From the NCBI RefSeq assembly GCF_988242995.1, contig NZ_OZ547043.1: 64,000 nucleotides of DNA; one strand, written 5' to 3'. The notes under the pieces are model-generated. The model did no database searches, was not told the origin of the DNA, and saw only the letters and a list, made by a program, of their open reading frames with translations. Every line of letters begins with the position of its first letter. Within the stretch, counting starts at the first letter, position 1. Positions 1 through 62,054 of the stretch are shown here, one piece after another. A program made the translations under genes and the position numbers.

Positions 1-31
1 GTGTCGAGATGTTCTGCCGGTTTATAAGCTT

Positions 32-31653: not shown

Positions 31654-33015
31654 ATGTTTAAACCGGAACTCCTTTCCCCGGCGGGAACGCTGAAAAATAT
31701 GCGTTACGCTTTCGCTTATGGCGCAGATGCTGTTTATGCGGGCCAGCCGCGTTACTCCCTGCGTGTGCGCAACAACGAATTTAACCACGAAAATCTTCAG
31801 CTCGGCATCAATGAAGCCCACGCGCTGGGGAAAAAGTTTTATGTCGTGGTCAACATTGCACCGCACAACGCCAAGCTGAAAACCTTTATCCGTGACCTGA
31901 AACCGGTGGTGGAAATGGGGCCGGATGCGCTGATTATGTCTGATCCAGGGCTGATTATGCTGGTGCGCGAGCACTTCCCTGAAATGCCGATCCATCTCTC
32001 AGTACAGGCTAACGCCGTGAACTGGGCGACGGTGAAATTCTGGCAGCAAATGGGTCTGACCCGCGTGATCCTCTCTCGCGAACTGTCACTGGAAGAGATT
32101 GAAGAGATCCGCAATCAGGTGCCAGATATGGAGATCGAAATCTTCGTTCACGGCGCGCTGTGCATGGCCTACTCCGGTCGCTGCCTGCTCTCTGGCTATA
32201 TCAACAAGCGCGACCCGAACCAGGGCACCTGCACCAACGCCTGCCGCTGGGAGTACAACGTCCAGGAAGGGAAAGAAGATGACGTTGGCAACATCGTGCA
32301 CAAGTACGAGCCGATTCCGGTGCAAAATGTTGAGCCGACGCTGGGTATCGGCGCACCAACTGACAAAGTGTTTATGATCGAAGAAGCCCAGCGTCCGGGC
32401 GAGTATATGACCGCGTTTGAAGATGAGCACGGCACTTACATCATGAACTCGAAAGATCTGCGCGCTATCGCCCACGTTGAACGCCTGACCAAAATGGGCG
32501 TGCATTCGCTGAAAATCGAAGGCCGTACTAAATCTTTCTACTATTGCGCACGCACCGCACAGGTTTACCGTAAAGCTATCGATGACGCCGCTGCGGGCAA
32601 ACCGTTCGATACCAGCCTGCTGGAAACTCTGGAAGGTCTGGCGCATCGTGGCTATACCGAAGGTTTCCTGCGTCGTCATACTCACGACGATTATCAGAAC
32701 TACGAATACGGTTATTCAGTTTCTGACCGCCAGCAGTTTGTTGGTGAGTTTACCGGTGAGCGCAAGGGCGACCTCGCGGCGGTAGCGGTGAAAAATAAAT
32801 TCTCCGTTGGCGACAGCCTTGAGCTGATGACGCCGCAAGGCAACATTAATTTTACCCTTGAGCACATGGAAAACGCCAAAGGTGAAGCTATGCCGGTCGC
32901 ACCAGGCGATGGTTATACTGTGTGGATCCCGGTGCCGCAGGATCTTGAGCTAAATTACGCGCTGCTGATGCGTAATTTCTCCGGGGAAACCACGCGTAAC
33001 CCCCACGGTAAGTGA
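31654..33015 (+). CDS. yegQ: Peptidase U32-family protein YegQ (TrhP-type)
   Basis: 453-aa ORF beginning MFKPELLSPAGTLKNMRYAFAYGADAVYAG; Cys-rich U32 motif region. Confidence 0.9.
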   Translation: MFKPELLSPAGTLKNMRYAFAYGADAVYAGQPRYSLRVRNNEFNHENLQLGINEAHALGKKFYVVVNIAPHNAKLKTFIRDLKPVVEMGPDALIMSDPGLIMLVREHFPEMPIHLSVQANAVNWATVKFWQQMGLTRVILSRELSLEEIEEIRNQVPDMEIEIFVHGALCMAYSGRCLLSGYINKRDPNQGTCTNACRWEYNVQEGKEDDVGNIVHKYEPIPVQNVEPTLGIGAPTDKVFMIEEAQRPGEYMTAFEDEHGTYIMNSKDLRAIAHVERLTKMGVHSLKIEGRTKSFYYCARTAQVYRKAIDDAAAGKPFDTSLLETLEGLAHRGYTEGFLRRHTHDDYQNYEYGYSVSDRQQFVGEFTGERKGDLAAVAVKNKFSVGDSLELMTPQGNINFTLEHMENAKGEAMPVAPGDGYTVWIPVPQDLELNYALLMRNFSGETTRNPHGK

Positions 33016-33099: not shown

Positions 33100-33186
33100 G
33101 CTGAAAAACATAACCCATAAAATGCTAGCTGTACCAGGAACCACCTCCTTAGCCTGTGTAATCTCCCTTACACGGGCTTATTTTTT
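33100..33186 (+). ncRNA. cyaR: CyaR (RyeE) Hfq-dependent sRNA
   Basis: 87 nt recognised from memory as CyaR: GCTGAAAAACATAACCCATAAAATGCTAGCTGTACCAGGAACCACCTCCTTAGCCTGTGTAATCTCCCTTACACGGGCTTATTTTTT, ending in an intrinsic terminator. Confidence 0.85.
33160..33186. other. P2-type attachment-site core (27 bp) overlapping the cyaR 3' terminator
   Basis: AATCTCCCTTACACGGGCTTATTTTTT is the reverse complement of the P2 att core AAAAAATAAGCCCGTGTAAGGGAGATT as recalled; it abuts the ogr end of the prophage. Confidence 0.7.
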
Positions 33187-33506: not shown

Positions 33507-33587
33507 CGCGAGCACCTCTTCCGGTTTTGTTGATGGTGCCATTTTAGTTAATTTATCCTTATAAAACAAACAGATAAATAAATTACA

Positions 33588-34751
33588 TCACTCATCATCT
33601 TCTGTTTCGTACTCCACATCAGAAAGCCTGACCTCAAGCTCTAAGGACGTCGTGAAGCCGCTATTATTCAGAAAATGTGTCACCTTAGTGATTGTCCAGT
33701 CCTGCTCGTCTATGACGCGCTTAAAGCCTGATACTTTAACCGGTGTTTCCGTGTAAATATCAGCACGACCGGTAGCCAGGCTGATGGAGAACTCCGCAAC
33801 GCCCCGTTGCAGTTTATCCCACTTCGCCTGAGCGGCACGCATGGCCTGTGCTTTCGTGGCATATACCGTGGTCAGGGCAAAAACGTTGTCAGCCTCACCG
33901 GCCATGTATTCACCTTCGCGCGCTTCCGGTACTTTTGGCGCTTTCTTCTGCCTGACCGGTTTTGCTTTCGGGTGCTCCAGTGCGCGCAGGTGTTTTTCTT
34001 TCTTTTTGCGTTTCAGTTTTACCTTCTGCTTTTGCGGCTTCGGGTCTTTGGTGTGTAACCACTTTGCCGTTACGCCGGTATAGGCTCCACGGTCAGCAAT
34101 CGCAAAATGATGGCGGTCGCCGTCGCTGCGGGTGATGGTGACCTGCGGGATTTTTTTACCGCTGGCCGTCACCCCCTGCCCCGCTTTGAGAAACAGCAGT
34201 TTTCCCATTTTTACCGACACCTCACCGCCGTTGCGTTCTGCAAGACGGGTCAGGAATTTCGCATCAGACTCCTGCGACTGGTCGATGTGCGGGATTTTAA
34301 TTCCGGCCAGTGACGGCGCGACACTGGCTTCCAGCTTGTTACGGGAGGCTATCGCCTCAACAATCGCACCGAGCGTGGTGTCATGCCATGAGCCTTCACG
34401 GCGGGAATTGAGCGTCCCGCGAAAATCTGCACTCCGGGCGCGGATGGTGACCACATCCGGTGCGCCCCGGTGTTCAACCTCATCAACGGTAAATTTCCCT
34501 TTGCATACCAGGGCAAAACCTTTCCAGCCGATATACACCGTCAGAACAGCACCACGAACCGGCAGTTCGACCTGCCCGTCGGCATCGTTCAGTTCAATAT
34601 CAAGCTGGTCAGCCTCAAAGCCCCGGTTATCCGTCAGGGTCATGCTCATCAGACGGTCGCTGATATTGCCGGTAATATCCCTGCTGTCGAGCATCAGCAT
34701 GTAATCCGGCGTCAGCGTACTGCCTGCATCAAATGTCAGCGCATCCAGCAT
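33588..34751 (-). CDS. D: P2 gpD-like tail protein
   Basis: 387-aa ORF in the conserved position after ogr; lysine-rich central segment. Confidence 0.85.
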   Translation of the reverse strand: MLDALTFDAGSTLTPDYMLMLDSRDITGNISDRLMSMTLTDNRGFEADQLDIELNDADGQVELPVRGAVLTVYIGWKGFALVCKGKFTVDEVEHRGAPDVVTIRARSADFRGTLNSRREGSWHDTTLGAIVEAIASRNKLEASVAPSLAGIKIPHIDQSQESDAKFLTRLAERNGGEVSVKMGKLLFLKAGQGVTASGKKIPQVTITRSDGDRHHFAIADRGAYTGVTAKWLHTKDPKPQKQKVKLKRKKKEKHLRALEHPKAKPVRQKKAPKVPEAREGEYMAGEADNVFALTTVYATKAQAMRAAQAKWDKLQRGVAEFSISLATGRADIYTETPVKVSGFKRVIDEQDWTITKVTHFLNNSGFTTSLELEVRLSDVEYETEDDE

Positions 34752-38699: not shown

Positions 38700-39890
38700 T
38701 TAATTGCTGTTAACCGAGGTGACCAGATTTGCCAGGTATTTATCGGTAATACGCTGGCGCAGGGTCAGGTTTTCAAGAGGAGGCACCGGTGTATAGTCGT
38801 AGTCGATATACAGTTTTCCGGCCTTGAGGGTTTCCGCATCGTTGGATTCTTCGCTGAACCAGCAGGTCGCATCCACGATATAGCCGTTTGTTTTCAGCTC
38901 ACGGAATTTGGCATTGATGCCGTCAACGATGTCGCGAATCAGCGTTGCGGTGATGGGCTTGTCCACCGCCCACATGTGCGCCTCAGCCATCGTGTCGGCC
39001 ATCACCTGCGCGGTGCGGGTGTAGTTTTCAAAGAGGAACAGCGGGTCATCAGAGCAGGTACGGTTACCCCAGAATCGGAAACCGTCGCGGCGAATCAGCG
39101 TAGTGACGCCTGACTCGTTAAGCAGGTCAGCATCGGTGCCGGACTCCTGCAAATCCCAGAATACAGATGCGCTGATGCCGGTAACACCGTTTACCCCGAC
39201 GTTGGACAGCGTTTTATGCCAGCCCTGCTCCTGGTCGATTTTAGCGCGCAGACCCAGCGCACGGGCGGTGGCATACGCGGTGGCGGTGGTACTGGTGACC
39301 GTATCCCATGCGAGGAAATCCGGCCAGATGACCATCAGCTCACGCTGGCTGAAATTCTGGCGGTAGGCTTTCACCTCGGAAATGGTCTTACAGCCCCATG
39401 CGCTGATATATCCGAAAGCGCGCAGCTTCTGACAGACGGATGCCAGTGCAACAGCCACCTCTTTGGTATCCAGTCCCGGCACGCCGAGAATACGCGGTTT
39501 AACACCGGTTACCGACTCCGCCGCCAGCAGGGCTTTCAGTCCGGTGTACTGACCGTTTTCGTCGGTGGTGCCGATGATATTGGAAACGGTCTGCGCAAGT
39601 TTCGTTTCCTCGTCATCACCGGTGCCGTCTTCCACGCGCACGACAACGGTGACCGGTTTTGACTGGTCAGCGATGGCCTGCAACGATGCCGCCAGCGTGC
39701 CTTTTTTACCGGCCTTTGCAATTGCGCTCTGCACATTGGTAATCAGCACCGGTTTATTGAGGGGGAAGGTTTCCGCATCCGCATCGCTGGCCGTGCAGAC
39801 CATGCCGACAATGGCAGTGGATACGGTGGAAATGACGCGGGTGCCGTCGTTAATCTCCAGCACCTGCACGCCGTGATGATAGTCACTCAT
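38700..39890 (-). CDS. FI: Contractile tail sheath protein gpFI
   Basis: 396-aa ORF beginning MSDYHHGVQVLEINDGTRVISTVSTAIVG. Confidence 0.9.
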   Translation of the reverse strand: MSDYHHGVQVLEINDGTRVISTVSTAIVGMVCTASDADAETFPLNKPVLITNVQSAIAKAGKKGTLAASLQAIADQSKPVTVVVRVEDGTGDDEETKLAQTVSNIIGTTDENGQYTGLKALLAAESVTGVKPRILGVPGLDTKEVAVALASVCQKLRAFGYISAWGCKTISEVKAYRQNFSQRELMVIWPDFLAWDTVTSTTATAYATARALGLRAKIDQEQGWHKTLSNVGVNGVTGISASVFWDLQESGTDADLLNESGVTTLIRRDGFRFWGNRTCSDDPLFLFENYTRTAQVMADTMAEAHMWAVDKPITATLIRDIVDGINAKFRELKTNGYIVDATCWFSEESNDAETLKAGKLYIDYDYTPVPPLENLTLRQRITDKYLANLVTSVNSN

Positions 39891-40257
39891 CCGTTTAACT
39901 CCGTGGTTAATGGGTGCAACTATTTTCTGTTGTGCAGAGCATGAGACGCTATTTGCCCTGGATGGTCAGTGGATGAAACAACAGATACAGAAAAGGCGGG
40001 CAATTCGCCCGCATTTCCTAATTTGTACTAACCCAGCTTCCAACTGACAATTTACGTAGCCAAAAAGCTATCAAGTCTGGCAGACTGATTTGTACGAGGT
40101 GTGGATAACCATAATTATGTGCATGCTAACATCACGGTGCATGAGTCAATCGGGTCTATGCCAAAGAATTACGCCTTGATTGACCATAGATTGCTTGCCC
40201 TTGAATTTGACCATTCCAATAAAATGAATTATGATAATCGTCAAATGGAGGTGCACA

Positions 40258-40902
40258 ATGATCAAACACACCGCAGCAGAAAGGGAAACCAACACTTCAG
40301 CTAAGCTGAATGAATACCAGTTGAACCTTCTGAAAAGAATTAACAACCTCGCTATTTCCCTGATGCCTGAATTTGAAGACAAAAACCAGGCAATTAATGC
40401 TATCACGCTGGATGATAGTTCACTGATGCAATTGCTCTACACCGTTCAACTCGAACAGAAGACTCGTGTCAATGACTACGAACTACGTAAAGTGCGCCGT
40501 CGTCGCGAAAATCTGGAACGATTTTATCGTGGGCTTCAGGAGTTAGGCGGTACGCTAAAGGTAAATGACGTGGTCGATATTCTTGGAATCACCCGCCAGG
40601 CGATCAACATTCGCGTTAAGAAGAACAAGCTTTTAGCATTCAAGCAGAACGGTGATTTTATTTTCCCGAAATTTCAGTTCACAGATAACGGGCTGATTCC
40701 CGGCTTTGAAGACGTAATGGCGGCATTTGACGAGAATACCCATCCAATGCTGAGGTTGGGTGTGCTGAAATCACCAATAGAGGTTAATAGCGAAGGCCTG
40801 AAAAAGACGCCGATTCAAATCATGCAGGACGGCGCTAAAAATAGTGAACTTAGTCTGGCTATCCGTGCCGCTAAACAGTTCGGAAATCATGTATCCAGTT
40901 AA
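40258..40902 (+). CDS. Hotspot cargo: HTH protein with C-terminal MbcA/ParS (DUF2384)-like toxin-binding region; putative antitoxin or regulator
   Basis: ORF track 40231..40902; ATG 40258 has a GGAGG RBS, giving 214 aa. Central HTH-like segment (VVDILGITRQAINIRVKKN); C-terminal SPIEVNSEGLKKTPIQIMQDG...LSLAIRAAKQFG resembles the MbcA/ParS toxin-binding domain as recalled; not in the P2 core. Confidence 0.45.
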   Translation: MIKHTAAERETNTSAKLNEYQLNLLKRINNLAISLMPEFEDKNQAINAITLDDSSLMQLLYTVQLEQKTRVNDYELRKVRRRRENLERFYRGLQELGGTLKVNDVVDILGITRQAINIRVKKNKLLAFKQNGDFIFPKFQFTDNGLIPGFEDVMAAFDENTHPMLRLGVLKSPIEVNSEGLKKTPIQIMQDGAKNSELSLAIRAAKQFGNHVSS

Positions 40903-40908
40903 TTGTTT

Positions 40909-40940
40909 TAAAAAGAGGGGCTAGCCAGCCCCTCTTTGGT
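40909..40940. terminator. Bidirectional intrinsic terminator between the convergent cargo genes
   Basis: Hairpin AGAGGGGCT-AGCC-AGCCCCTCT flanked by T-rich runs on both strands, lying in the 38-bp gap between the two stop codons. Confidence 0.6.
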
Positions 40941-41651
40941 TTACATTGGTTCTGGCGTAATTTCGAATCCAAGCAGTTCTTCGAACATCTCTTCACCTGA
41001 CATCGTTCCTTTGTGCCACCCTTTAGGGAAGATACCTTCGTCATTTTCGATGTAACTGGCATAAGGCACCATCCCCTGAGGGGTATCGGTAAAGGCTGGT
41101 GTACTATCCGGTCGTTCCCAAAAGGCATAACAGCGTTTATAGCGTTTATGCCTTGAGGTATAGGCTATCCCGTCATAGTCACGCCCGAAATGTGTATAAA
41201 GATGTTCCATTAGCCATTGAGTAAAAGTGTAATCCTCGTTCTCTAAGCTATCCAAAGGAATATGTAACAACTCACAGAGCGCTACAACATCGATCACTTT
41301 CACTGGCCTCATGACATCCACAGAGCACATATAGTGTTGTGAAAGTACCGATTCAGGATAAGAAATCGTCCCTTCGAGATGGAGCAAACGCCCATAAGCT
41401 TCTGCCGCCGCCGTTAACGCAGAGTCAGAGGCATACCATACCGCCACACATCCCCCTGGGGGGTTGTATCGCCCACATTCATTTTCCTCAATTGGCGCTC
41501 TGAAGTTGATTGCGCTTTCATACAACGCCCTTTGATGACGCTTCAAAAGACCAGAGCCTGGTTGAATGTCAATCGCCGGAATACGTCCAGATTTATTTTT
41601 TGCAGCAATTCCTTGTGCAACAATATTTTTTTCAAATGTCCATTTGGTCAT
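40941..41651 (-). CDS. Hotspot cargo: RES-domain protein (putative NAD+-consuming toxin)
   Basis: ORF track 40941..41699; ATG 41651 has an AAGGAG RBS, giving 236 aa. N-terminal CGRYNPPGGCVAVWYASDSALTAAAE matches the RES signature GGRWNPP...Y.A.S...A..E (Arg, Glu); later DGIAYTSRH supplies the conserved Ser. Confidence 0.55.
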   Translation of the reverse strand: MTKWTFEKNIVAQGIAAKNKSGRIPAIDIQPGSGLLKRHQRALYESAINFRAPIEENECGRYNPPGGCVAVWYASDSALTAAAEAYGRLLHLEGTISYPESVLSQHYMCSVDVMRPVKVIDVVALCELLHIPLDSLENEDYTFTQWLMEHLYTHFGRDYDGIAYTSRHKRYKRCYAFWERPDSTPAFTDTPQGMVPYASYIENDEGIFPKGWHKGTMSGEEMFEELLGFEITPEPM

Positions 41652-42066
41652 TTTTACTACTCCTTCTATAAACAGATTAAGCCATAGGCTCCTCTCCATA
41701 TTGATTGAAAATAATCCCTACCGTGCTTGCCCGGCAGGGGGTATGAGAACATGTGTATCTCAATCTCGATTATACCAAGCAAATTTTCTATTTTTCGGAA
41801 ATTTAGAGAGTTTTTTTAATGCTTCGCATGCCTTCTCGATGTATTGATGGGGCTGAAAAGAAGAAATAACGCAGGAAGTTTTACGGAAAGGAGAACTATA
41901 AAGATTTTTTTCAAGTGAATTAGAAATAAGAACTTCGCAGGATACTGCATTTTTAGTGAAGATGGGTTGAGTTTCTCAGCAAGAGTCCCGCGAGAGCCGT
42001 ATTGACAGCATGCATGACTCGGAGATTATTCCCCATGCAGGATGGTACACCAATGCAAGAGTTGGT

Positions 42067-42255
42067 TTACGCAAATGATTGGATGATCGCGATTACCGAC
42101 CGTACATTGCGCAAATAACGTTCTGCGTCGATGCTATTAAGATGCCCCGACCACACCGTACGACGGACGCCGTAGTGATCCGAGCTTAAGAATAGATAAT
42201 CTTTTCTCTCCGGATTCACCGTTCGCAGTGCGTTTTCCATAGCTGTCGCAAGCAC
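42067..42255 (-). CDS. Small hypothetical ORF in the Z/fun-equivalent region
   Basis: 62-aa ORF (MLATAMENALRTVNPERKDYLFLSSDHYGVRR...) without a recognisable RBS; may be a gene remnant. Confidence 0.2.
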   Translation of the reverse strand: MLATAMENALRTVNPERKDYLFLSSDHYGVRRTVWSGHLNSIDAERYLRNVRSVIAIIQSFA

Positions 42256-42345
42256 AATACTTCCGCTACAGGCACAGAGCGGACTGTCAGATTAGGTTTT
42301 ACTCTGTGCCATAGATGAGTAATCTCACACCAGATCTAATACGAT

Positions 42346-42924
42346 TTATTGTGGCATTTCAGGCCATTCTATATCCGGAGCATCTTCCGGCTGAACGCGA
42401 TTCAGTAGCACACGGTATTTTTTCCAGTGTGTCAGGCTTAACTTTTCTTCCTCGGTAGCCATATCTAAATCGACAGCATCCTGCAGCGTGGCAATAATTT
42501 CACCTGCATATGCAATCAGCTCTTTCTTCTGAGAGTCAGCCGCTCTGACAAGCGCATCACGCTCTGCATTCTCATCATTCACCCACGCATTTCCGTTCCA
42601 TTTCTGATAATCCCCATCCGGGGAAATGGCTGTCACGTCTGGAGGTAATGCGCCAAGTTCAGAAATATAAATGGCTGCTCCCGTTTTCGTTTCGTAGACA
42701 GTCTTTCCGCGATGATCTTCCATCAACTCCCATTTTATTTCATCTGCATTGAAAACGGCTGCATAACCAGCCGGTATATCAGGCGGCGCAATATCTGTAC
42801 TGTTTGCAGGCAGACCTGTATACGGTGGAATATACGCGTCACTTTCCCCAATAAATTCATTGGTTCCATCAAGTAAATTAAATACGCGGATAGTTTGTGC
42901 TTCTGCACTCATTCTGAAAGCCAT
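42346..42924 (-). CDS. G: Tail fiber assembly chaperone (gpG/Tfa-like)
   Basis: 192-aa ORF immediately downstream of and overlapping the tail fiber gene stop; conserved position. Confidence 0.7.
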
Positions 42925-45542
42925 TATGCAAGCCTCACAATATAGTTAAATGCGATGTTTTTTACGGTATTTTCTGTATTACCTGTAGCATTAACGGTAA
43001 TAGAGTGCCCGTGTGAGCCAATAGCAACCGTGTGTGAATGTGCACCAATACCAACAGTATGGTTATGTGCTCCAATGTCGACTGTATGTGCATGATTGCC
43101 TGATGAACTTGTAGTCGTAGCACCTTTATCACTTCGCGGAACACCATAATCTGCACCGCCTGATTGCACGCTCACAGCAAAACCGACGGTATGTGTATGA
43201 TTGCCAGAAGTATTGGTTGATTTTGTGCCGTGGTTAAACGTACTGACTGTTTTTGTCCCGTAATCAAATGAACTGGTTGTTTTCGTTCCCAAATCCGTAT
43301 TTGACGCACTGGCGCTGTGAGTATGCGATTTAATCCCGTCCTGTTCCTGTGACAATACGGCACGCCCACTGGCAGGTTTGCCCTTGATTGTCCAGCCGCG
43401 CATATCAGGAATAACACCTGAAGGATAGGCAACAGCCAGTTTCGGATATGCAGCCTTATCAAACGTCTGCCCCTGCATAATTGCATAGCCCGCAGGTGGT
43501 GTATCTGATGGCCACGGCAACGGAACACCTGGCGGAAACGCTTCAATATCTTTCGTCCCGTCAAACGTTACGCCATTAATCGCCCTTGCCGTTTTCAGCT
43601 TTGTAGCTGTAGCCGCATTGCCGGACAGTTCGCCTGAAAGACCGGCGCTGAAGGTTTGTTTCGCCGCCCATGTCTGAGCTTCGTCGATAATTGGCACACG
43701 TCTTGTCGTGATCGTGCGGCTTCCCGGATTTCCTGAAATACGCACCATAAAAAAGCGGTAGTTCGCTTTACTTACAGTGCTGCGCCATACATGCATTGAG
43801 CGCCCAGTACCGGAATCATCACTCGGACCAACTGCGATGTTTATCAGGTTGCCATCAATGACGCCCCAGTCCATACCGTCGGGAATATTGGTCATGTTAT
43901 CAAGCCGAACGGTTATCAGACTGCCCGGCACAAAGTCGTGGGTCTGCCAGTCCAGGCTGGTGAGTTTTGCCACTGCACCGCCGATACCCAGATTCAGGGG
44001 AAGTGAATACGAGGTGTAGACTTCCCGCCATTCGCTCCACGAGCTGCCGGTATAGACGCGCTCAAACGTGCGACCTTTAAGGGTTGCACCTGTTCCGGCA
44101 GTTGTATAACGCTGCCATACGTTAACACCATCAAAGCGCCTCAACACTTCCAGAATACCGAGGACTGTCACGCCGTTTCCGTCCAGTATTGGACCGTTGG
44201 TCGCTTTACCTGTAACGCTGTAAATACCTGGTGAAGTCACATCATTCAAATCCCCGTCGTAATAACGACTCTCTGACTGATGACCGACTCTTAACCACGG
44301 TTCCCACTGCGGATTTGATGCATCCCAGCTTGCCGCAAGGCAGCGGACATACATATTTCCACGGCGAGTGGTATAACGTTGCGTTCTTCCATAATTCCCG
44401 CCTTCGAGGATCTCAAGCGTCCCCTGAGCAAAGCCGCCTTCCTCTGGATAATTGCGTTCATATGAAGCTATAGCCGAGCTACTGTTACGCCATAAACCAA
44501 GATGTTCGGCGGCTCCAAGCGTATTCAGGTCTATAGTCGTACTCAAAGGGCGGGTAGCTGATTGAGTGTGACGCCATACGCCCCATGGACCATCAGTACC
44601 ATTCCACTGATTGGCGAGTTTACGCATGTATACATTGCCGTCTCTCGTGATAAAGCGTTGCGTGCCTGCAAAATTGCCGGCAGCAAAAACCTCAAGCACA
44701 CCGACAGCATTATCTTCCGGGAAATTTTTCTCCAGTGTTGCGTTAGTTGAGGTAGCTTTAGACCAGATCCCCAGATAAGCCTTAACGGGACCAAATGTAT
44801 TCAGATCAGCATCAACCGGCATTTCGCCGTTGTTTTTCATAAACGTCAGGCTGGTAACGCCAACATTGTCCAGAAAAGCGTCCTTATCTGGAATATCGCC
44901 ACCGTTCTGGTCTTTCTGCAGACGTTTCTCAGCATTGTCATAGGCTGCTTTTACTGCCTTTGGCGTTGCCGCCAGCTTTTCACTGGTGCTGTTTGTTGCA
45001 CTGCTTAACTGAGTAAAACCTTTTTCTGTCAGCGTGGCGTCAGGATGGCGGCGGGACTGCTCATGCTCTGCGATTTTGTCATCGACGTAATCCTGCGTCG
45101 CCATCACCGTGCTGGCATCAATACTCAGCTCAACGGACGCCACGTTGCTGAGAATAATAACCATGCGGCAGGTCTGCGCACGTCCGGAGCCTTCAGCCAG
45201 TTCTGGCTTATAGCTTTCTGCCATGTTGGATACCGCAATCAGTGTTCCGGCATCGTCATACAGACCAAGCTCACGCATCCAGAAGCCGCCCACTTCGGGC
45301 GGTACAACCAGTTCAGCCACGATATAGTTTTTATTCTTGTTATCCACGCTGACTTTATTCAGAGCGTGACGCCAGACCTCATGCACCAGTTTCGTCTGAC
45401 CGGCATCCGGCACCGGCAATTTGCCATTACCGTCACCCACGGCCATTGCAGACAGGTTTACTTTTTTCCCGCCGGGGACAGTGGCGGCTGCCAGCTTTGC
45501 GGCTCCGGCAGTAGTGATAACGGTTTTAAATTTCGTGCTCAT
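42924..45542 (-). CDS. H: Tail fiber protein gpH, mosaic, with His-box-rich C-terminal receptor-binding region
   Basis: 872-aa ORF; P2 H-like N-terminus ([40 protein letters not shown]...); C-terminal repeated GNHxHTV/GxHxH motifs. Confidence 0.85.
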
Positions 45543-51501: not shown

Positions 51502-52245
51502 TTAACTGGCTTTCTTTTTCGGGCGTCCACGTTTTGCCGGTGTCACGCTCCGGGTCTTACGCGGGGTACGGGTGGCCGCTTTTGGCTGCGGCTCCGGCTT
51601 CGGTTTCAGCTCCCGCTCCAGTCGTTCAATCTCTTTTTTGACGCCTGCCTGACAGTCGAGCTGCGTCGCACGTTGCAGGTGAGCCAGCGCACCGGCGGCA
51701 TCACCACCGTCACGCAGAAACAGACCGGTGATTTTGTGCAGCTTTGCGCGCACTTCATCAGGCATGTCAGCCGTGGCGGTCAGTTCAAGGGTCTCCGTCA
51801 GCAGGCGGGTATCCACAGACTCACCGGCAGCGTGAGCGCGCATGGCCGCAAGCGCTACCTCCTCGGTGAACATGTACGGCGGGGTACGGCGGTGTTTACC
51901 CGGCATGGTCAGACCGTACTTCAGGGCATAACGGGCAATCTCCAGCGCACCGGCAATATCGCCGGTATCCAGACGCCACAGCATGACCGTCATCAGAATG
52001 TCATCCTGTGCACCTTTGCCCTGCTCCAGCACGCCGTTCACCCACGGCAACCAGAACGGCAGCAGTTCGCGTTTTTTCGCGGCCTTCAGCTCTTTTGAAT
52101 AAATCGCTTTCAGTGTGCGCTGGTCTGCGGCGAGCTTAACCAGCATCTGCTCATAGACAGTTGCATGTCGCAGCGGGGCGGCTTCCCGCTGCGCGGTCAT
52201 CGCTGCCGAGACCCGCATCATGTGGCGCTGTGCGGGACTCGTCAT
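51502..52245 (-). CDS. M: Terminase small (endonuclease) subunit gpM
   Basis: 247-aa ORF with basic C-terminus. Confidence 0.85.
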   Translation of the reverse strand: MTSPAQRHMMRVSAAMTAQREAAPLRHATVYEQMLVKLAADQRTLKAIYSKELKAAKKRELLPFWLPWVNGVLEQGKGAQDDILMTVMLWRLDTGDIAGALEIARYALKYGLTMPGKHRRTPPYMFTEEVALAAMRAHAAGESVDTRLLTETLELTATADMPDEVRAKLHKITGLFLRDGGDAAGALAHLQRATQLDCQAGVKKEIERLERELKPKPEPQPKAATRTPRKTRSVTPAKRGRPKKKAS

Positions 52246-54408: not shown

Positions 54409-56181
54409 ATGACCATCACCACAGACACCACTCTTTTACACGACCCGCGTCGTCAGGCGGCGCTGCTGTACTGGCAGGGGTTTTCCGTGCCGCAGATTGC
54501 CGCCATGTTGCAGATGAAACGCCCGACGGTGCAGAGCTGGAAACAGCGCGACGGCTGGGACAGCGTTGCCCCCATCAGCCGTGTCGAAATGAGTCTGGAA
54601 GCGCGGCTGACCCAGCTCATCATCAAACCGCAGAAAACCGGCGGTGACTTCAAGGAAATTGACCTGCTCGGACGCCAGATTGAACGACTGGCACGGGTCA
54701 ACCGTTACAGTCAGACCGGCAACGAGGCAGACCTTAATCCGAACGTCGCTAACCGCAACAAAGGCGGGCGTCGCAAACCGAAAAAGAATTTTTTCAGTGA
54801 CGAGGCCATCGAAAAGCTGGACCAGATTTTCTTTGAGCAGTCTTTCGAATATCAGTTGCACTGGTATCGCGCCGGGCTTGAGCACCGCATCCGCGATATC
54901 CTGAAATCCCGCCAGATTGGCGCGACGTTTTATTTTTCCCGCGAGGCGCTGCTGCGCGCCCTGAAAACCGGTCATAACCAGATTTTTCTGTCGGCCAGTA
55001 AAACGCAGGCGTATGTGTTCCGCGAATACATCATCGCCTTTGCCCGGCTGGTTGACGTTGACCTGACCGGTGACCCGATTGTCCTGGGCAATAACGGCGC
55101 AAAACTGATTTTTCTCGGCACCAACTCCAACACCGCGCAGAGCCATAACGGCGACCTGTACGTCGACGAGATTTTCTGGATCCCGAATTTTCAGGTACTG
55201 CGTAAGGTGGCATCAGGTATGGCCTCACAGAGTCACCTGCGTTCGACCTATTTCTCCACCCCGTCCACGCTGGCGCACGACGCCTACCCGTTCTGGTCGG
55301 GTGAACTGTTTAACCGGGGACGCGCCAGCGCCGCCGAACGCGTGGAAATCGACGTCAGTCATAACGCCCTTGCCGGTGGACTTCTCTGTGCGGACGGCCA
55401 GTGGCGGCAGATTGTCACCATTGAGGACGCCCTGAAAGGCGGCTGCACGCTGTTCGACATTGAGCAGCTTAAACGCGAAAACAGCGCCGACGATTTTAAA
55501 AACCTGTTCATGTGTGAATTTGTTGACGACAAGGCGTCGGTGTTCCCGTTCGAGGAGCTGCAACGCTGCATGGTCGACACGCTGGAAGAATGGGAAGACT
55601 ATGCGCCGTTTGCCGCGAATCCGTTCGGCTCCCGCCCGGTATGGATTGGTTACGACCCGTCACACCGTGGCGACAGCGCCGGATGCGTGGTACTGGCACC
55701 GCCGGTGGTGGCCGGTGGCAAATTCAGAATACTTGAGCGTCACCAGTGGAAAGGCATGGACTTTGCCACTCAGGCTGAATCCATCCGCAAACTCACCGAA
55801 AAATACAACGTCGAATACATCGGTATTGATGCCACCGGCCTCGGTGTCGGCGTGTTCCAGCTCGTGCGCTCGTTCTATCCCGCCGCGCGCGACATCCGCT
55901 ACACGCCGGAAATGAAAACCGCAATGGTGCTCAAGGCAAAAGACGTTATCCGCCGTGGCTGTCTGGAATATGACGTCAGCGCCACCGACATCACCAGCTC
56001 GTTTATGGCTATCCGCAAGACCATGACCAGCAGCGGGCGCAGCGCCACCTATGAGGCCAGCCGCAGCGAGGAAGCCAGCCACGCCGACCTCGCCTGGGCG
56101 ACCATGCACGCCCTGTTAAATGAGCCACTCACCGCCGGTATCAGCACCCCGCTGACATCCACCATTCTGGAGTTTTACTGA
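54409..56181 (+). CDS. P: Terminase large (ATPase) subunit gpP
   Basis: ORF track 54379..56181; start at ATG 54409 with GAGGT RBS (MTITTDTTLLHDPRRQAALLYWQG...), giving 590 aa. Confidence 0.9.
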   Translation: MTITTDTTLLHDPRRQAALLYWQGFSVPQIAAMLQMKRPTVQSWKQRDGWDSVAPISRVEMSLEARLTQLIIKPQKTGGDFKEIDLLGRQIERLARVNRYSQTGNEADLNPNVANRNKGGRRKPKKNFFSDEAIEKLDQIFFEQSFEYQLHWYRAGLEHRIRDILKSRQIGATFYFSREALLRALKTGHNQIFLSASKTQAYVFREYIIAFARLVDVDLTGDPIVLGNNGAKLIFLGTNSNTAQSHNGDLYVDEIFWIPNFQVLRKVASGMASQSHLRSTYFSTPSTLAHDAYPFWSGELFNRGRASAAERVEIDVSHNALAGGLLCADGQWRQIVTIEDALKGGCTLFDIEQLKRENSADDFKNLFMCEFVDDKASVFPFEELQRCMVDTLEEWEDYAPFAANPFGSRPVWIGYDPSHRGDSAGCVVLAPPVVAGGKFRILERHQWKGMDFATQAESIRKLTEKYNVEYIGIDATGLGVGVFQLVRSFYPAARDIRYTPEMKTAMVLKAKDVIRRGCLEYDVSATDITSSFMAIRKTMTSSGRSATYEASRSEEASHADLAWATMHALLNEPLTAGISTPLTSTILEFY

Positions 56182-57215
56182 TGAGCAAGAAAAAAGGGAA
56201 AACACCGCAACCTGCGGCAAAAAAAATGACCGCCAGCGCCCCGAAAATGGAGGCATTCACCTTTGGTGAGCCGGTGCCGGTACTCGACCGCCGTGACATT
56301 CTGGATTACGTCGAGTGCATCAGTAACGGCAGATGGTATGAGCCACCGGTCAGCTTTACCGGTCTGGCAAAAAGTCTGCGTGCTGCCGTGCATCACAGCT
56401 CACCGATTTACGTTAAACGCAATATTCTGGCCTCGACATTTATCCCGCATCCGTGGCTTTCGCAACAGGATTTCAGCCGCTTTGTGCTGGATTTTCTGGT
56501 GTTCGGTAATGCGTTTCTGGAAAAGCGTTACAGCACCACCGGTAAGGTCATCAGACTGGAAACCTCACCGGCCAAATATACCCGTCGTGGCGTGGAGGAG
56601 GATGTTTACTGGTGGGTGCCGTCCTTCAACGAGCCGACAGCCTTCGCGCCCGGCTCCGTGTTTCACCTGCTGGAGCCTGATATTAATCAGGAGCTGTACG
56701 GCCTGCCGGAATATCTCAGCGCCCTTAACTCTGCCTGGCTGAATGAGTCGGCCACGCTGTTCCGCCGCAAGTATTACGAAAACGGCGCACATGCCGGATA
56801 CATCATGTACGTCACCGATGCCGTGCAGGACCGCAACGATATCGAAATGCTTCGCGAAAACATGGTTAAGTCGAAAGGCCGCAATAACTTTAAAAATCTG
56901 TTTCTCTATGCCCCACAGGGGAAAGCCGACGGCATTAAAATTATCCCGCTCAGTGAAGTGGCAACGAAGGACGATTTTTTTAATATCAAAAAAGCCAGTG
57001 CCGCAGACCTGCTGGACGCGCACCGCATCCCCTTTCAGTTGATGGGGGGCAAGCCGGAGAACGTCGGGTCGCTGGGTGATATTGAGAAAGTGGCAAAGGT
57101 CTTTGTCCGCAATGAGCTTATCCCGTTACAGGACAGGATCCGAGAGATAAACGGCTGGCTCGGTCAGGAGGTCATCCGCTTTAAAAACTACTCACTGGAC
57201 ACTGACAACGACTGA
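56181..57215 (+). CDS. Q: Portal protein gpQ
   Basis: 344-aa ORF overlapping the P stop. Confidence 0.9.
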   Translation: MSKKKGKTPQPAAKKMTASAPKMEAFTFGEPVPVLDRRDILDYVECISNGRWYEPPVSFTGLAKSLRAAVHHSSPIYVKRNILASTFIPHPWLSQQDFSRFVLDFLVFGNAFLEKRYSTTGKVIRLETSPAKYTRRGVEEDVYWWVPSFNEPTAFAPGSVFHLLEPDINQELYGLPEYLSALNSAWLNESATLFRRKYYENGAHAGYIMYVTDAVQDRNDIEMLRENMVKSKGRNNFKNLFLYAPQGKADGIKIIPLSEVATKDDFFNIKKASAADLLDAHRIPFQLMGGKPENVGSLGDIEKVAKVFVRNELIPLQDRIREINGWLGQEVIRFKNYSLDTDND

Positions 57216-57384
57216 ACATCGCCGCCTGCGGGCGGCTTTTTTACATCCCGTCATCACGCCCTCACACGCTCACCACCGCACAAAACACCCCTTAGACACA
57301 CCAACGCCCCGACGCACAATCTAAACGCCATCACGACGCGCTCAGACGCTGAAAAAATAAAATCAGCACCACCGCCAGCGCGCA

Positions 57385-57403
57385 GTGCTTTCCCCGCCTC
57401 GCC
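57385..57403. other. P2 cos cohesive-end sequence (19 nt)
   Basis: GTGCTTTCCCCGCCTCGCC is the reverse complement of the P2 cohesive end GGCGAGGCGGGGAAAGCAC as recalled; located just past Q. Confidence 0.75.
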
Positions 57404-57554
57404 CGCCCGCTTCATGGGTCGGTTTGAATGCAGTTGAATTACAACTACCAAACCAAGCAATCCCTACTATTACGCAGAAAATGCATACTGAAATACCTCG
57501 TGCAAATTGATGCAGCTAAGTATGCATAGGTTTTATGCCTCAACGTATACGTTA

Positions 57555-59387
57555 TCAAACAGAGCCCTGTTCAAAAACAGTATCAAAATATGGTAGGAGA
57601 GGATAAGCACACAGAAAGAAAATCAGGATGCATGCATATGTCGTTGTTTCATCGTAACAAGCATTAGTATATAAATTACCATGTGCTAATTTATGTCTTA
57701 AGGTTGCCCCACTCTTTCTGTTAAAAAGAACATCGATAGTCAAAACAAGATTTTTAGAAAAGATACTTTCCAAATCATCTCTGCATTTATCTAGAAGCTG
57801 AGAAATACTTGTTGACTCCTCTAATCCCTTATCCAAATATCTAGTAGCATCCTTTCCACTAAGCTCATAATAATAACGAACCATACCTTCCATTTGTGGT
57901 ATTAAAAGATAAGCTGCACTGATGTAATCTCCCTGCCATAATTTGTAAAAGCCCAAATTAAAAATCTCCCTAAACTCCGGCTTGACAATTGGACTAGTTG
58001 TAACCAATTTAACGAATGTTGACAACGTCAAGCCATGTTCTTGAGAAAGTACATAGCGAGCAGGTTCAAAGACACCGTTTACAAAAATCTTATGAGTAAT
58101 CTCGAAATTTCTTAGATATTGATCAATAACAACATCATCACTCATATCTTTTTTATTATCCAACGGCGGGATTGTATATATCTTACGCCCACTCTCATCA
58201 TTAATTTCTGTTCCAACAAAACTAGAGAATAAACTTTTTTCTGATAATCTTAAAACTTGTTCCCTCATGCTTTCAATATTTTCAATCGGTGTTTCACTCA
58301 TTAAAACTTTGAATATATCGGGCAAAGAACGCCCCGTCAGTTTTTTTTCACTTTCAGCAACCAAGTCACTAATATCAATAGAATGGCTTAAAGTGACATA
58401 TTCACTCCTTACTTCTTCTCTCAAATTAGCAAGTTGTTCCTTTAAATCTTCTATCTGTTGGCTATCACCACCGTACTGTCTTAATTCAGAGATAGCTGTT
58501 CTTAACCAAGAGATCTTACCCATATTATCAGGTCGTTCTGTTGCAACTTTAATAGTAATATTTGCAGATGCCAGTTTACATCTCTTGGCACGTTCATACT
58601 CACCATTTTTTTCATAAATAACTGCACTTGTCATATAAAGTGATTTTACAGCATCATAATATTTTTTATCTTTATGCTGCTCAGCCATCTTCTCAGCATT
58701 TTCCGCATACTGCAGATTATACCCATCAAAATCACGCACCATAAACCAAGTCAAATTATTGAAACCTTCAAAGATTAATCTTTCATTTTGAATACTATAA
58801 AGAGAATGAATGGCATTTTTAATCGCCATGTTTCCTTCTGATTTTCTAGGGTAGACCATTTTATTAATGTGCAAAGCCCTAGCAATATAATCACGAGCAA
58901 AAATAAAGCAATTTAAATCACTTTCATCCATGCTTTCGTTTTTTATTATTAGCTTTTCAATTGCTATATTTAGCATTTCAGCATAGGAATCAATTGCTTT
59001 AATTGCCACGTCTTTATTTTTCCGATTATTACACCAAACAACATCATATATTCTTGATAACAAAAATGGATTGGTTATTTTTTGAGAAACATATAAAAGA
59101 CAGTCATTCACCTGCTCATCAAAATCTTCAGGCAATATTGATCTTTTATTACCCCAAATCATTTGGGGTTCAAATGCTGGAGTGTTGTTAACAACTTGCA
59201 AATTGAAACTATATAGCATACCAAAAAGAGATGCTAATTTTTTCTCTTTGGGGTTTTCTGATGACTCAGCAATCCCATCCAGATATTTTTTTATTTTATG
59301 TGCATGAAATGTAACTGGTATATACATAAAAACACTATAATCTAGTGTTTCAAGCTCTTCCCTTGTAAGAACAAAGATATCATTCAT
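57555..59387 (-). CDS. Hotspot cargo: large AT-rich protein of unknown family with C-terminal HEPN-like Rx4H motif; candidate anti-phage effector
   Basis: ORF track 57555..59492; likely start ATG 59387 with AAGGTGA RBS (MNDIFVLTREELETLDY...), giving 610 aa. Occupies the position of P2 tin/old; codon usage visibly AT-rich; no Walker A, TOPRIM or RT motif seen; LRHKLAHG near the C-terminus. Confidence 0.6.
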   Translation of the reverse strand: MNDIFVLTREELETLDYSVFMYIPVTFHAHKIKKYLDGIAESSENPKEKKLASLFGMLYSFNLQVVNNTPAFEPQMIWGNKRSILPEDFDEQVNDCLLYVSQKITNPFLLSRIYDVVWCNNRKNKDVAIKAIDSYAEMLNIAIEKLIIKNESMDESDLNCFIFARDYIARALHINKMVYPRKSEGNMAIKNAIHSLYSIQNERLIFEGFNNLTWFMVRDFDGYNLQYAENAEKMAEQHKDKKYYDAVKSLYMTSAVIYEKNGEYERAKRCKLASANITIKVATERPDNMGKISWLRTAISELRQYGGDSQQIEDLKEQLANLREEVRSEYVTLSHSIDISDLVAESEKKLTGRSLPDIFKVLMSETPIENIESMREQVLRLSEKSLFSSFVGTEINDESGRKIYTIPPLDNKKDMSDDVVIDQYLRNFEITHKIFVNGVFEPARYVLSQEHGLTLSTFVKLVTTSPIVKPEFREIFNLGFYKLWQGDYISAAYLLIPQMEGMVRYYYELSGKDATRYLDKGLEESTSISQLLDKCRDDLESIFSKNLVLTIDVLFNRKSGATLRHKLAHGNLYTNACYDETTTYACILIFFLCAYPLLPYFDTVFEQGSV

Positions 59388-59506
59388 CGTTTTCACCTTT
59401 TTCAGTATAAATTTGCACGCATTATTATTAGCAACATAATCATCAATAGTTAACACATGCAGATAGACAGCAATTTTACTATTATGCAACAAATTAAATC
59501 AGATGT

Positions 59507-61789
59507 TTATTGCTCTGAATAACAATAAAACCAACTCCACTCATCAGCGACCGGATACGTAAATTTTTTCCCGTTGTAATTTACGGTCGCTCCACGCGCC
59601 AGCGCCTCCATCTCCCATCGCTGCGGCCTGATACCGTTCTGAGCAAGGTCAACGCGGATACGGGTAATTTGCATTCGTTCCGACCGGGTCAGTCTGGCCG
59701 ATGGCGCTATTTCATGCGGTTTTAGCGGGCTTCCGTTTCTTTGCTGACGATTTAGCGTTCTCAGCCCGTGTTTTAATGCGCCCCTGAGCGCCTTCACGAC
59801 CTCCGGGTCATTCCATTCGATAACACCGTCATTAACCAGATTAAGCACTGCTGCGGCGTGCTCAGAAGGTGTGGGAGCCGGTAACGAAGTATCACCACCA
59901 GTGAGCTTTCCACAGTTATTGACAGGACTCCGAGGCGCGGCGATGCCGCTTTTTAAAGTCAAAGGCTCAACGACCGGAACTTTCGGCACAATGCGCCAGT
60001 CCGTCGTTCTGGTGATATGAATATGACGCGCGCCGAGATGCGGCGCGTAAATGCCGACCACTCTCTCAACTTCTTCCTCGTACTCGTTAACGTCATCCGA
60101 CGGGCTACGGGCAACCCTGACAGTCTGACAATCGCGCGGGACATTTGCCCCACCCTGCGCGCTGATATACAACGCAAAATCACCACTGTCTGCGGCGGCG
60201 CGTGCAGCCTCGACGCGTTCGTCAAACTCATCAGCAATGCTGACGCCGCGAGGCAATTTGCGTAGTTCACGGTAAGCCCCCATTGTCGGCAGGCCAACCG
60301 TTTTAAATTGCGGGATGCGCCACGTTGACGCCCATGCGGTAACAGCCGCGGCAGTGTCATTCAGCGGTCTGCCGGTATCATTATCGAGCTGACCATCCAG
60401 TGCATATCCGTCGATATTTTTTGAGATGTATTTCGCGATATACCCCGCAGCACCGCCCCGGTTAAGGTGTTTCGCCTGAAAACGGTTTCGCGCGGCTCCT
60501 CTTTCGTCGCCATCCTCTTTGAGCGCGTAGCGACGCATGATTTCAATAATCTGGTTACGCTGGCGTGGATTACAAAAAAGCATCATATGCCAGTGCGGCG
60601 TTCCGTCGTGGTGTGGCTCGACGACTCGCAAACCGTAGACCTGTAAATCATTATCCTTGAATGCCGTGCGCATCAGGCTCCAGATACGGCAGAGATAACG
60701 CTGCGCATCCTTTGGATTAAATGCCTCATCGTTCCAGCCGTGATTAAGCTGGACGGTTTTACTTTCGCCTTTTCCGACCTGACGTGTCGGGTGATACTTT
60801 GACGGCGCGGTCAGCGTGATAAACATCCCCACATCACCCTCTGCGGCGGCGTAACGCTCAATACCGGCAATGGTGTTCATCAGCTCCATCCGGCGAATTT
60901 CAGGATTAGAAATACTGCCCATCACCTTACTGATAAGGTCGATGCGCTCGCCGGTTTCCCTGTTTTCAAGGTCACACGATTTAAGAAATTCCAGATTTGC
61001 CTGGCGGCGTGCACGTACATCACGAATGGCATGTTTACTGGCATAAGGAGAACGGTCTTTATTCACCTCCCCGACAGCAATCAGTAACGCCTCATGCCAG
61101 CGCATACGCTGGCCTTTAAGCTGATGAGTCCACCACTCATCGTTAAACAGACGGGCAATGGCAGAATATGCCTGCCTCGTGGTCATCTGTCCTTTACGGT
61201 ATTTTTTCCAGTAGAGAGGGGAAATATTGAAAGCACGTGCAGCGCCAGCAACATGACCATAGAGGTGAGCCTGCGCCTCATCCGTAAACAGCGATTCTTT
61301 CTCGCCATGCGCATCCACCCAGGCATCGCAGAGTTCCTCATACATCATGAAAAGCTGCGATGAGATACGGGCAGCAAATTTTTTCAGCTCCTTGTCATTC
61401 ATTCCCGGCAGGCGCGCATACTGGTCGCGCTCTGCCAGAAACAGCAACGACGCATCGGTGTTCATTTCATGGCGCTGATTCACACGATCAATGCGCGGCC
61501 ATAAACGACGCTGAAAAGTGGATGTGAGGAAATAAAACCCGTGCACTGGGCTTTTATTGCGCCTGATGTAGTCATAGCGTGAAGTAAACAGCGAGCGCAA
61601 AAAGTAAGGCAGGCGGTTAATCGTGGATAAAACACCTTGCACCTGACGCATCTCATCACGTGTAAGAGGTCTTTCGCGCCCGACAGCCTCGCGTGGCGCG
61701 TTCCATGCATAAGCACCGGTAAACATCTTACCGGTGCCTGCGGCAAATGCTGACGGAGGGACAAAACGCCCGGAGGCTTTAACGGCCAT
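59507..61789 (-). CDS. A: Replication initiation protein gpA (rolling-circle nickase)
   Basis: ORF track 59507..61831; probable start at 61789 (MAVKASGRFVPPSAFAAGTGKMF...), giving about 760 aa. Confidence 0.85.
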   Translation of the reverse strand: MAVKASGRFVPPSAFAAGTGKMFTGAYAWNAPREAVGRERPLTRDEMRQVQGVLSTINRLPYFLRSLFTSRYDYIRRNKSPVHGFYFLTSTFQRRLWPRIDRVNQRHEMNTDASLLFLAERDQYARLPGMNDKELKKFAARISSQLFMMYEELCDAWVDAHGEKESLFTDEAQAHLYGHVAGAARAFNISPLYWKKYRKGQMTTRQAYSAIARLFNDEWWTHQLKGQRMRWHEALLIAVGEVNKDRSPYASKHAIRDVRARRQANLEFLKSCDLENRETGERIDLISKVMGSISNPEIRRMELMNTIAGIERYAAAEGDVGMFITLTAPSKYHPTRQVGKGESKTVQLNHGWNDEAFNPKDAQRYLCRIWSLMRTAFKDNDLQVYGLRVVEPHHDGTPHWHMMLFCNPRQRNQIIEIMRRYALKEDGDERGAARNRFQAKHLNRGGAAGYIAKYISKNIDGYALDGQLDNDTGRPLNDTAAAVTAWASTWRIPQFKTVGLPTMGAYRELRKLPRGVSIADEFDERVEAARAAADSGDFALYISAQGGANVPRDCQTVRVARSPSDDVNEYEEEVERVVGIYAPHLGARHIHITRTTDWRIVPKVPVVEPLTLKSGIAAPRSPVNNCGKLTGGDTSLPAPTPSEHAAAVLNLVNDGVIEWNDPEVVKALRGALKHGLRTLNRQQRNGSPLKPHEIAPSARLTRSERMQITRIRVDLAQNGIRPQRWEMEALARGATVNYNGKKFTYPVADEWSWFYCYSEQ

Positions 61790-62054
61790 ATGAGCCAAAA
61801 GCCTCTGAGCAACGCTTGCTGAGTTGCTCAACCTGCGCGTTTAAATCAGCAAAAGACTTTGCGCTTCCGGTCAGAATATCGTGATGCATCAGGCCGGAAA
61901 CGAGCTGGCTTAATTTCGGGTAATAACCAACCACCGCCAGCCATTCCTGACCGGCGTTTTTACCGCTTTCCGCTCTCTTTTTCTCGTGGAGAATAAACTG
62001 AAAGCTGTCACTGGTAACGACATAACGTTCGCCAATTTCGATACGAATACTCAT
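61779..62054 (-). CDS. P2 orf83-like hypothetical protein
   Basis: 91-aa ORF in the conserved early-operon position. Confidence 0.6.
   Translation of the reverse strand: MSIRIEIGERYVVTSDSFQFILHEKKRAESGKNAGQEWLAVVGYYPKLSQLVSGLMHHDILTGSAKSFADLNAQVEQLSKRCSEAFGSYGR

Follow-up and report, generated by a model that had tools for sequence, protein, structure and literature searches.

In the prophage analysed here a 611-aa gene of low GC content lies beside the portal gene Q, and the gap between the two raises the question of whether a phage packaging site has been kept there, and whether the neighbouring gene would be carried along with the phage. A preliminary description of the locus had proposed both, on the strength of a 19-nt cohesive-end sequence with its flanks. 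Working from sequence comparison within the window (the whole 64,000-nucleotide stretch that was analysed), we are confident that positions 57216..57554 are where a P2-type (Peduovirus) prophage has its cos packaging site, at the canonical place. The segment is an entire intergenic gap, from the stop of the portal gene to the stop of the cargo gene. Base 57216 lies directly 3' of the Q stop (Q = 56181..57215, plus strand), while base 57554 abuts the stop codon of the cargo ORF, which is on the minus strand with its stop beginning at 57555. The placement between Q and the cargo gene was therefore correctly described, with exact stop-to-stop borders. The features of the gap, and the gene that closes it, are as follows.

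57221..57242, plus strand: tQ, the intrinsic terminator of the P-Q operon, a GC hairpin followed by a T run (-14.4 kcal/mol, z -3.15)
57246..57345, plus strand: tract rich in C (47%) and poor in G (13%), lying between tQ and cos
57378..57439: conserved cos core of ~60 bp, delimited by a four-way alignment, information content over 94 clusters and core-only BLAST matches
57385..57403, minus strand: 19-nt cohesive end, an exact single match identical to P2 cosL/cosR
57428..57439: proximal ATGCA box, here ATGCAGTTGAAT, consensus ATGCAGTTGCAT
57440..57498: variable spacer, fixed in length and free in sequence, unconserved across clusters
57499..57527: distal ATGCA repeats, with GTGCA at 57500, ATGCA at 57510 and ATGCA at 57522
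57555..59390, minus strand: cargo gene, 611 aa from the first ATG, ~33% GC, with a DUF7380 domain and a putative DUF4209/HEPN-like C-terminus

The P2 cohesive end, GGCGAGGCGGGGAAAGCAC, is matched at 19 of 19 positions at 57385..57403 on the minus strand, the plus-strand letters there being its reverse complement, GTGCTTTCCCCGCCTCGCC. This is the sole site in the 64-kb window even when up to three mismatches are permitted, against 0.02 expected from shuffled sequences, and an exact, unique site against such an expectation rules out a chance occurrence. Phage P2 (NC_001895) has the identical 19-mer as its cosL/cosR, and P4 has it at its left end. Annotations of P2 and 186 lead us to infer nicks at 57384/57385 (plus strand) and 57403/57404 (minus strand), leaving 5' overhangs. 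Several P2-like phage records (H26, H28-H30) start exactly at the base equivalent to 57403 and, taken as deposited, these starts are consistent with termini at the 19-mer. The reported cohesive end thus stands and its flanks align to P2-like phages. A comparison with the P2 cos flanks had been proposed as a check; the 169 bp on the Q side share 89% identity with canonical P2 and 94-98% with other P2-like phages, and on the cargo side 26 of the first 30 bp agree with P2.

To place these flanks within the wider family, IMG/VR was scanned with TGCTTTCCCCGCCNCGCC, yielding 120 loci, 118 of them with full flanks, which fell into 94 flank clusters. Loci were chosen by an exact 17-of-18-base core pattern, and since this pattern covers the bases concerned, conservation within 57386..57403 is by construction; elsewhere it is not. 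A leave-one-out weight matrix over the cos flanks gave the window 97 bits (rank 34 of 93), compared with 62 bits for canonical P2 and about -160 for shuffles, and a matrix for the right part of the core scored the window at 56.1 against a family median of 57.2. The cos site in the window is without decay and mid-range for the P2 family.

Reading from Q towards the cargo gene, the first element is the terminator at 57221..57242, homologous to the annotated tQ of P2 (160..181). The C-rich tract that follows is not peculiar to this prophage, as the sampled left flanks share the bias (medians of 46% C and 17% G, with C at least double G in 64/94 clusters). Lying on the strand of the P-Q transcript, 57246..57345 looks like a rut-type Rho loading region that might back up tQ. 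A minus-strand terminator abutting cos (57381..57366), raised by a pattern scan, was unsupported by folding (z 0.24), and a search for RNA families within 57000..59700 gave none, its sole match being at chance level (E 0.33).

The core itself is common to the window, P2, P4 and 186 in a four-way alignment that used the circularised ends of the three phages. It opens with GCGCGCA at 57378 and closes with the box ATGCAGTTGCAT at 57428..57439. Within this proximal box ATGCA stands at offset 43 in 88/94 clusters, with a TGCAT partner in 53/94. A 55-bp cos core common to P2 and P4 (and 186) was described by Ziermann and Calendar in 1990, as cited in passages of PMC5694545 and PMC9594776, and to judge from the alignment the ~60-bp core at 57378..57439 corresponds to it.

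Past the core the window and P2 part company. In the two, neither the spacer at 57440..57498 nor the sequence past the repeats is related, yet the same distal ATGCA repeats return at the same distance. In the four-way alignment the distal element ATGCAA-N5-ATGCAC is equidistant from cos in the window, P2, P4 and 186. Across the sample ATGCA lies at offset 114/115 in 74/94 clusters and at 124/125 in 74/94, and the other 22 clusters keep the register with degenerate distal repeats, mostly with one mismatch. At control offsets the tandem pattern was seen 0 times, and its rate in the rest of these loci was 1 per 149 kb. The repeats, ~95-125 bp to the right of the cut and spaced by ~10 bp, are position-fixed family-wide, and they are nearly invariant across P2-type and 186-type cos sites. 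They were also found in 4/4 P4-like clusters, in which this flank of cos borders on psu and there is no hotspot; this speaks for a function in packaging, not in expression of the cargo. We infer that the distal repeats may be the distal arm of the terminase recognition signal. A cos pattern from Ralstonia phage RSA1, meant as a comparison with a divergent lineage, had no matches in IMG/VR.

Several palindromes were seen on this side of cos. In many 186-type and P4-type flanks (IMG/VR loci L013, L014, L018, L081 and others) the spacer that separates core from distal repeats holds a palindromic CCGCGCCAGCTCTGGCG, at offsets +68..+84 from the first cos base, equivalent to 57453..57469 of the window; the window and canonical P2 are without it. 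The window has a perfect 12-nt palindrome, AACGTATACGTT, at 57542..57553, one base downstream of the cargo stop codon, and a 9-nt perfect inverted repeat, ATGCATACT / AGTATGCAT, at 57481..57489 / 57519..57527, which pairs an extra ATGCA box with the third distal box. Folding gave no significant structure for either the 12-nt palindrome or the 9-nt inverted repeat.

Alignments of other P2-like prophages to the window end at 57432..57452, and one locus (L112) is identical at 180/180 positions on the Q side and identical through cos as far as 57418, diverging after that. Matches of ~60 bp confined to the core (57376..57436) come from loci in E. coli genomes with no annotated portal gene, presumably P4-like satellites and similar elements. 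When IMG/VR flanks were compared pairwise, spacer and distal repeats were similar in 17 of 24 pairs with a similar cargo side, as against 6 of 318 pairs with a similar Q side; the sequence of the spacer is thus linked to the cargo module and not to the phage backbone. Such co-variation with the cargo side, together with alignments that end in the core, indicates that the right arm of cos moves together with the cargo, the breakpoint lying inside the core. Put together with the fixed position of the repeats, a bipartite packaging signal can be proposed for the P2/P4 family, in which the core and the ATGCA array act across a fixed-length spacer and the right arm is exchanged with the cargo at a breakpoint in the core. 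We put this forward tentatively, as a possible reading of the sequences that we would not yet favour. A breakpoint within cos is compatible with the idea of recombination at cos ends raised in passages of PMC9122126, without proving it. The searched passages of that paper and of the preprint 10.64898/2026.02.27.708500 held no statement of a breakpoint in the cos core. Only if the older P2/186 literature lacks them would the repeats and the position of the breakpoint be new.

The main alternative holds that the cos site consists of the core only, and that 57440..57554, ATGCA repeats included, is 3' untranslated or regulatory DNA of the cargo cassette (a terminator, promoter or operator). BLAST homology to other P2-like phages does end at ~57440, the segment from there to 57554 co-varies with the cargo and not the backbone, and what the literature names, in the passages of PMC9594776 and PMC5694545 that describe it, is a 55-bp core. 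It also should be considered that in P2 the distal repeats sit just upstream of the old promoter, near the transcript starts of old and tin, so that a transcriptional role is possible there. Against these points, the distance from repeats to cut is fixed in essentially all 94 clusters despite unrelated spacer and cargo, and the repeats are present in P4-like satellites, where this side faces psu in place of a hotspot. No intrinsic terminator for the cargo gene, and no significant RNA structure, was found in 57470..57556 by pattern scan and folding on the cargo strand. Longer cos flanks, moreover, were reported to improve cosmid transduction (PMC9594776). On balance we consider it unlikely that the cos site ends with its core.

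As for the rest of the prophage, the plus strand of the window has the orientation opposite to that of the P2 map. The genes that bear most directly on cos, and on the far border of the cargo slot, are these.

51502..52245, minus strand: gpM, the small (endonuclease) terminase subunit, which acts on cos; 247/247 aa, 99.2% identical to P2 M (Pfam Phage_term_smal, E 3e-48)
54409..56181, plus strand: gpP, the large (ATPase) terminase subunit, with an N-terminal helix-turn-helix; 590/590 aa, 99.7% identical to P2 P
56181..57215, plus strand: gpQ portal gene, transcribed towards cos; 344/344 aa, 99.4% identical to P2 Q (Pfam Phage_portal)
59507..61831, minus strand: gpA replication endonuclease, the far border of the hotspot; 759/761 aa aligned, 96.7% identical to P2 A

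The large subunit has the Pfam domains Terminase_5, Terminase_6N and Terminase_6C; the alignment to P2 A ends at 59513, and the protein matches Pfam Phage_GPA. All P2 proteins were compared with the window by tblastn. Present at full length and 93-100% identical to P2 are Q, P, O, N, M, L, X, Y, K, lysA, lysB, R, S, V, W and J, and likewise I, FI, FII, E, T, U, D, ogr, cox, orf78, B, orf80-83 and A. By the same search no frameshifts or truncations were found in essential P2 genes inside the window, and P2 orf30 (between S and V in P2), fun(Z), orf91, tin and old were absent from it. At one end of the prophage the exact P2 att core, as the reverse complement of AAAAAATAAGCCCGTGTAAGGGAGATT, lies at 33160..33186 and adjoins a U32-peptidase gene (31654..33015) that we take to be yegQ. 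At the other the window cuts the C gene, whose first 22 residues equal those of P2 C, and int and the second att site (attL) fall past the edge of the window. E. coli Z0117EC0062 has a locus of 99.4% identity that extends into C, int, yegR and yegS, from which the length of the prophage can be estimated at ~32.3 kb, compared with 33.6 kb for P2. With near-identical P2 genes at full length and an intact terminase, the prophage reads as a very close relative of P2, apparently complete as far as the window reaches.

Two further parts of the prophage differ from P2. The tail-fibre module at 42346..45542 is swapped: the H homologue, of 872 aa, resembles P2 H only in its first 207 residues (84% identity), the G homologue, of 192 aa with a Caudo_TAP domain, is 39% identical to P2 G, and both are intact ORFs. 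This suggests a different host range. In the slot between FI and G, a second P2 hotspot (39890..42346), there is no fun(Z); an ORF of 252 aa on the minus strand (40941..41699) has a RES domain (Pfam RES, E 1.5e-12), and one of 223 aa on the plus strand (40231..40902) is without a family match. Neither the 252-aa RES ORF nor the 223-aa ORF had a PADLOC match.

In P2, excision by Int/Cox, replication driven by gpA, nicking by gpM/gpP, packaging through the gpQ portal and re-annealing of the ends are established biology; packaging proceeds from monomeric circles rather than concatemers, and P2-type prophages are not known to be SOS-inducible. The prophage in the window would be expected to follow the same route. 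Derepression would be followed by Int/Cox excision, and gpA-driven replication would yield monomeric circles. The terminase gpM/gpP would then bind cos and make staggered nicks at 57384/57385 (plus strand) and 57403/57404 (minus strand), leaving 19-nt 5' overhangs, and one genome length would be threaded through the gpQ portal into the capsid. Virion DNA made in this way should have Q and P at its left end and the cargo at its right end, the cargo stop codon 151 bp from the terminus, and after injection the ends would re-anneal.

The site could instead be a relic in a defective (cryptic) prophage that can neither excise nor make particles, its cargo being inherited vertically only. One may point to int, attL and most of C lying outside the window, and to tail-fibre genes H and G unlike those of P2; yegQ/yegR is also the site of a cryptic P2 remnant in E. 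coli K-12. Yet the essential P2 genes that the window covers are all full-length ORFs of 93-100% identity, free of frameshifts and truncations, the variant tail-fibre genes H (872 aa) and G (192 aa, Caudo_TAP) have unbroken reading frames, and a near-identical prophage elsewhere has int and C. The estimated size of ~32.3 kb is close to the 33.6 kb of P2, and the cos flanks score mid-range for the family. A cryptic prophage is accordingly a very unlikely explanation, and with cos core and flanks within the family range and gpM, gpP and gpQ at full length, the claim that the packaging site has been retained appears well founded. That the gap encodes a 68-aa protein (ORF 57254..57460, minus strand) is the least credible reading of all, since this ORF, which does exist and is entered as a 'hypothetical protein' CDS in ON470601 and other GenBank records of P2-like phages, has no credible family match, is the complement of a C-rich, low-complexity tract, was left uncalled by RefSeq PGAP in a near-identical prophage and spans the cos cut, so that it would be broken in linear phage DNA; we rejected it as a real gene, and it is probably an annotation artefact.

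The cargo protein matches DUF7380 (Pfam, E 3e-38) and, more weakly, DUF4209 (E 7e-4; 20.0 bits, under the 22.3-bit gathering cut-off), and its translation contains the motif RHKLAH (compare the HEPN motif Rx4-6H); DUF4209 has been classed as HEPN (PMC3710099). It also matches the PADLOC phage-defence candidate PDC-S39 (E 2e-84). A literature search for published anti-phage activity of PDC-S39-like DUF7380/DUF4209 cargo found none. An in-frame upstream TTG and other starts would stretch the ORF to as much as 645 aa, with its limit at 59492. Transcription of the gene runs towards cos, on the strand that also encodes A and opposite to old and tin of P2. Upstream of it lies an AT-rich leader of ~115 bp (59391..59506) with sigma-70-like promoter matches at 59453..59424 and 59509..59481, which are pattern matches only; transcription of the cargo may start at a promoter of its own, or may reach it by read-through from the A operon.

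The cargo occupies the cos-adjacent gpA-gpQ hotspot, described for defence genes in passages of Rousset et al. 2022 (PMC9122126) and of the preprint 10.64898/2026.02.27.708500. The borders are the same as in those passages of PMC9122126 (the end of A on one side, cos/Q on the other), the cargo is foreign and of low GC with a match to a PADLOC candidate, and content varies among otherwise near-identical prophages. Prophages otherwise similar to the one in the window likewise vary between gpA and cos/gpQ, and GC in the window falls there to ~33%. P2 itself has orf91, tin and old in this position, with the old promoter, whereas the window has a single gene in the opposite orientation, pointing towards cos. 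The region from Q to cos was matched in 2155/5426 complete E. coli genomes (~40%), the cargo beside cos in only 51-54/5426 (~1%); in those 51-54 genomes, from varied hosts, the Q-cos-cargo arrangement is at least 99% identical. The closest 'phage' record with the same cargo, vB_EcoM-569R9, was rejected as proof of packaging, being an in-silico prophage and not virion DNA. Because it sits in the gpA-gpQ hotspot, inside the phage, with 151 bp between its stop codon and the point where cos is cut, the cargo would move with the phage, as had been suggested at the outset.

How unusual is such a site? Four traits of a P2-family cos are seen here: the 19-nt end, a core of ~55 bp, a location downstream of Q and its terminator that faces the accessory region at the right end, and the cognate gpM/gpP. 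P2 has the identical 19-nt end (cosL 1..19 / cosR 33575..33593) in the same place downstream of Q and tQ, with near-identical terminase and portal. The retained cos is the default P2 architecture, and no special retention need be invoked; the placement of cos and the hotspot adjacent to it are published and already known for the P2 family. An analogy may also be drawn with the cos of lambda, organised as cosQ-cosN-cosB with R sites for gpNu1 and an IHF site, in that a nicking site with phased repeats flanking it on one side and positioning terminase may be alike in the two. There is no sequence relationship, and the overhang of 19 nt in the window contrasts with 12 nt in lambda, as judged from the P2-type 19-nt end.

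A candidate defence gene next to cos is, then, best annotated as phage-borne cargo of a probably viable P2-type prophage, which is useful for annotation and also what one would expect. If the bipartite signal proposed above were true, swapping at the hotspot would fit with recombination seeded by cos ends, a mechanism left open in passages of the hotspot papers. The design of P2/P4 cosmids and models for the swapping of defence cassettes should allow for the conserved distal ATGCA repeats, and for a right arm of cos that travels with the cargo.
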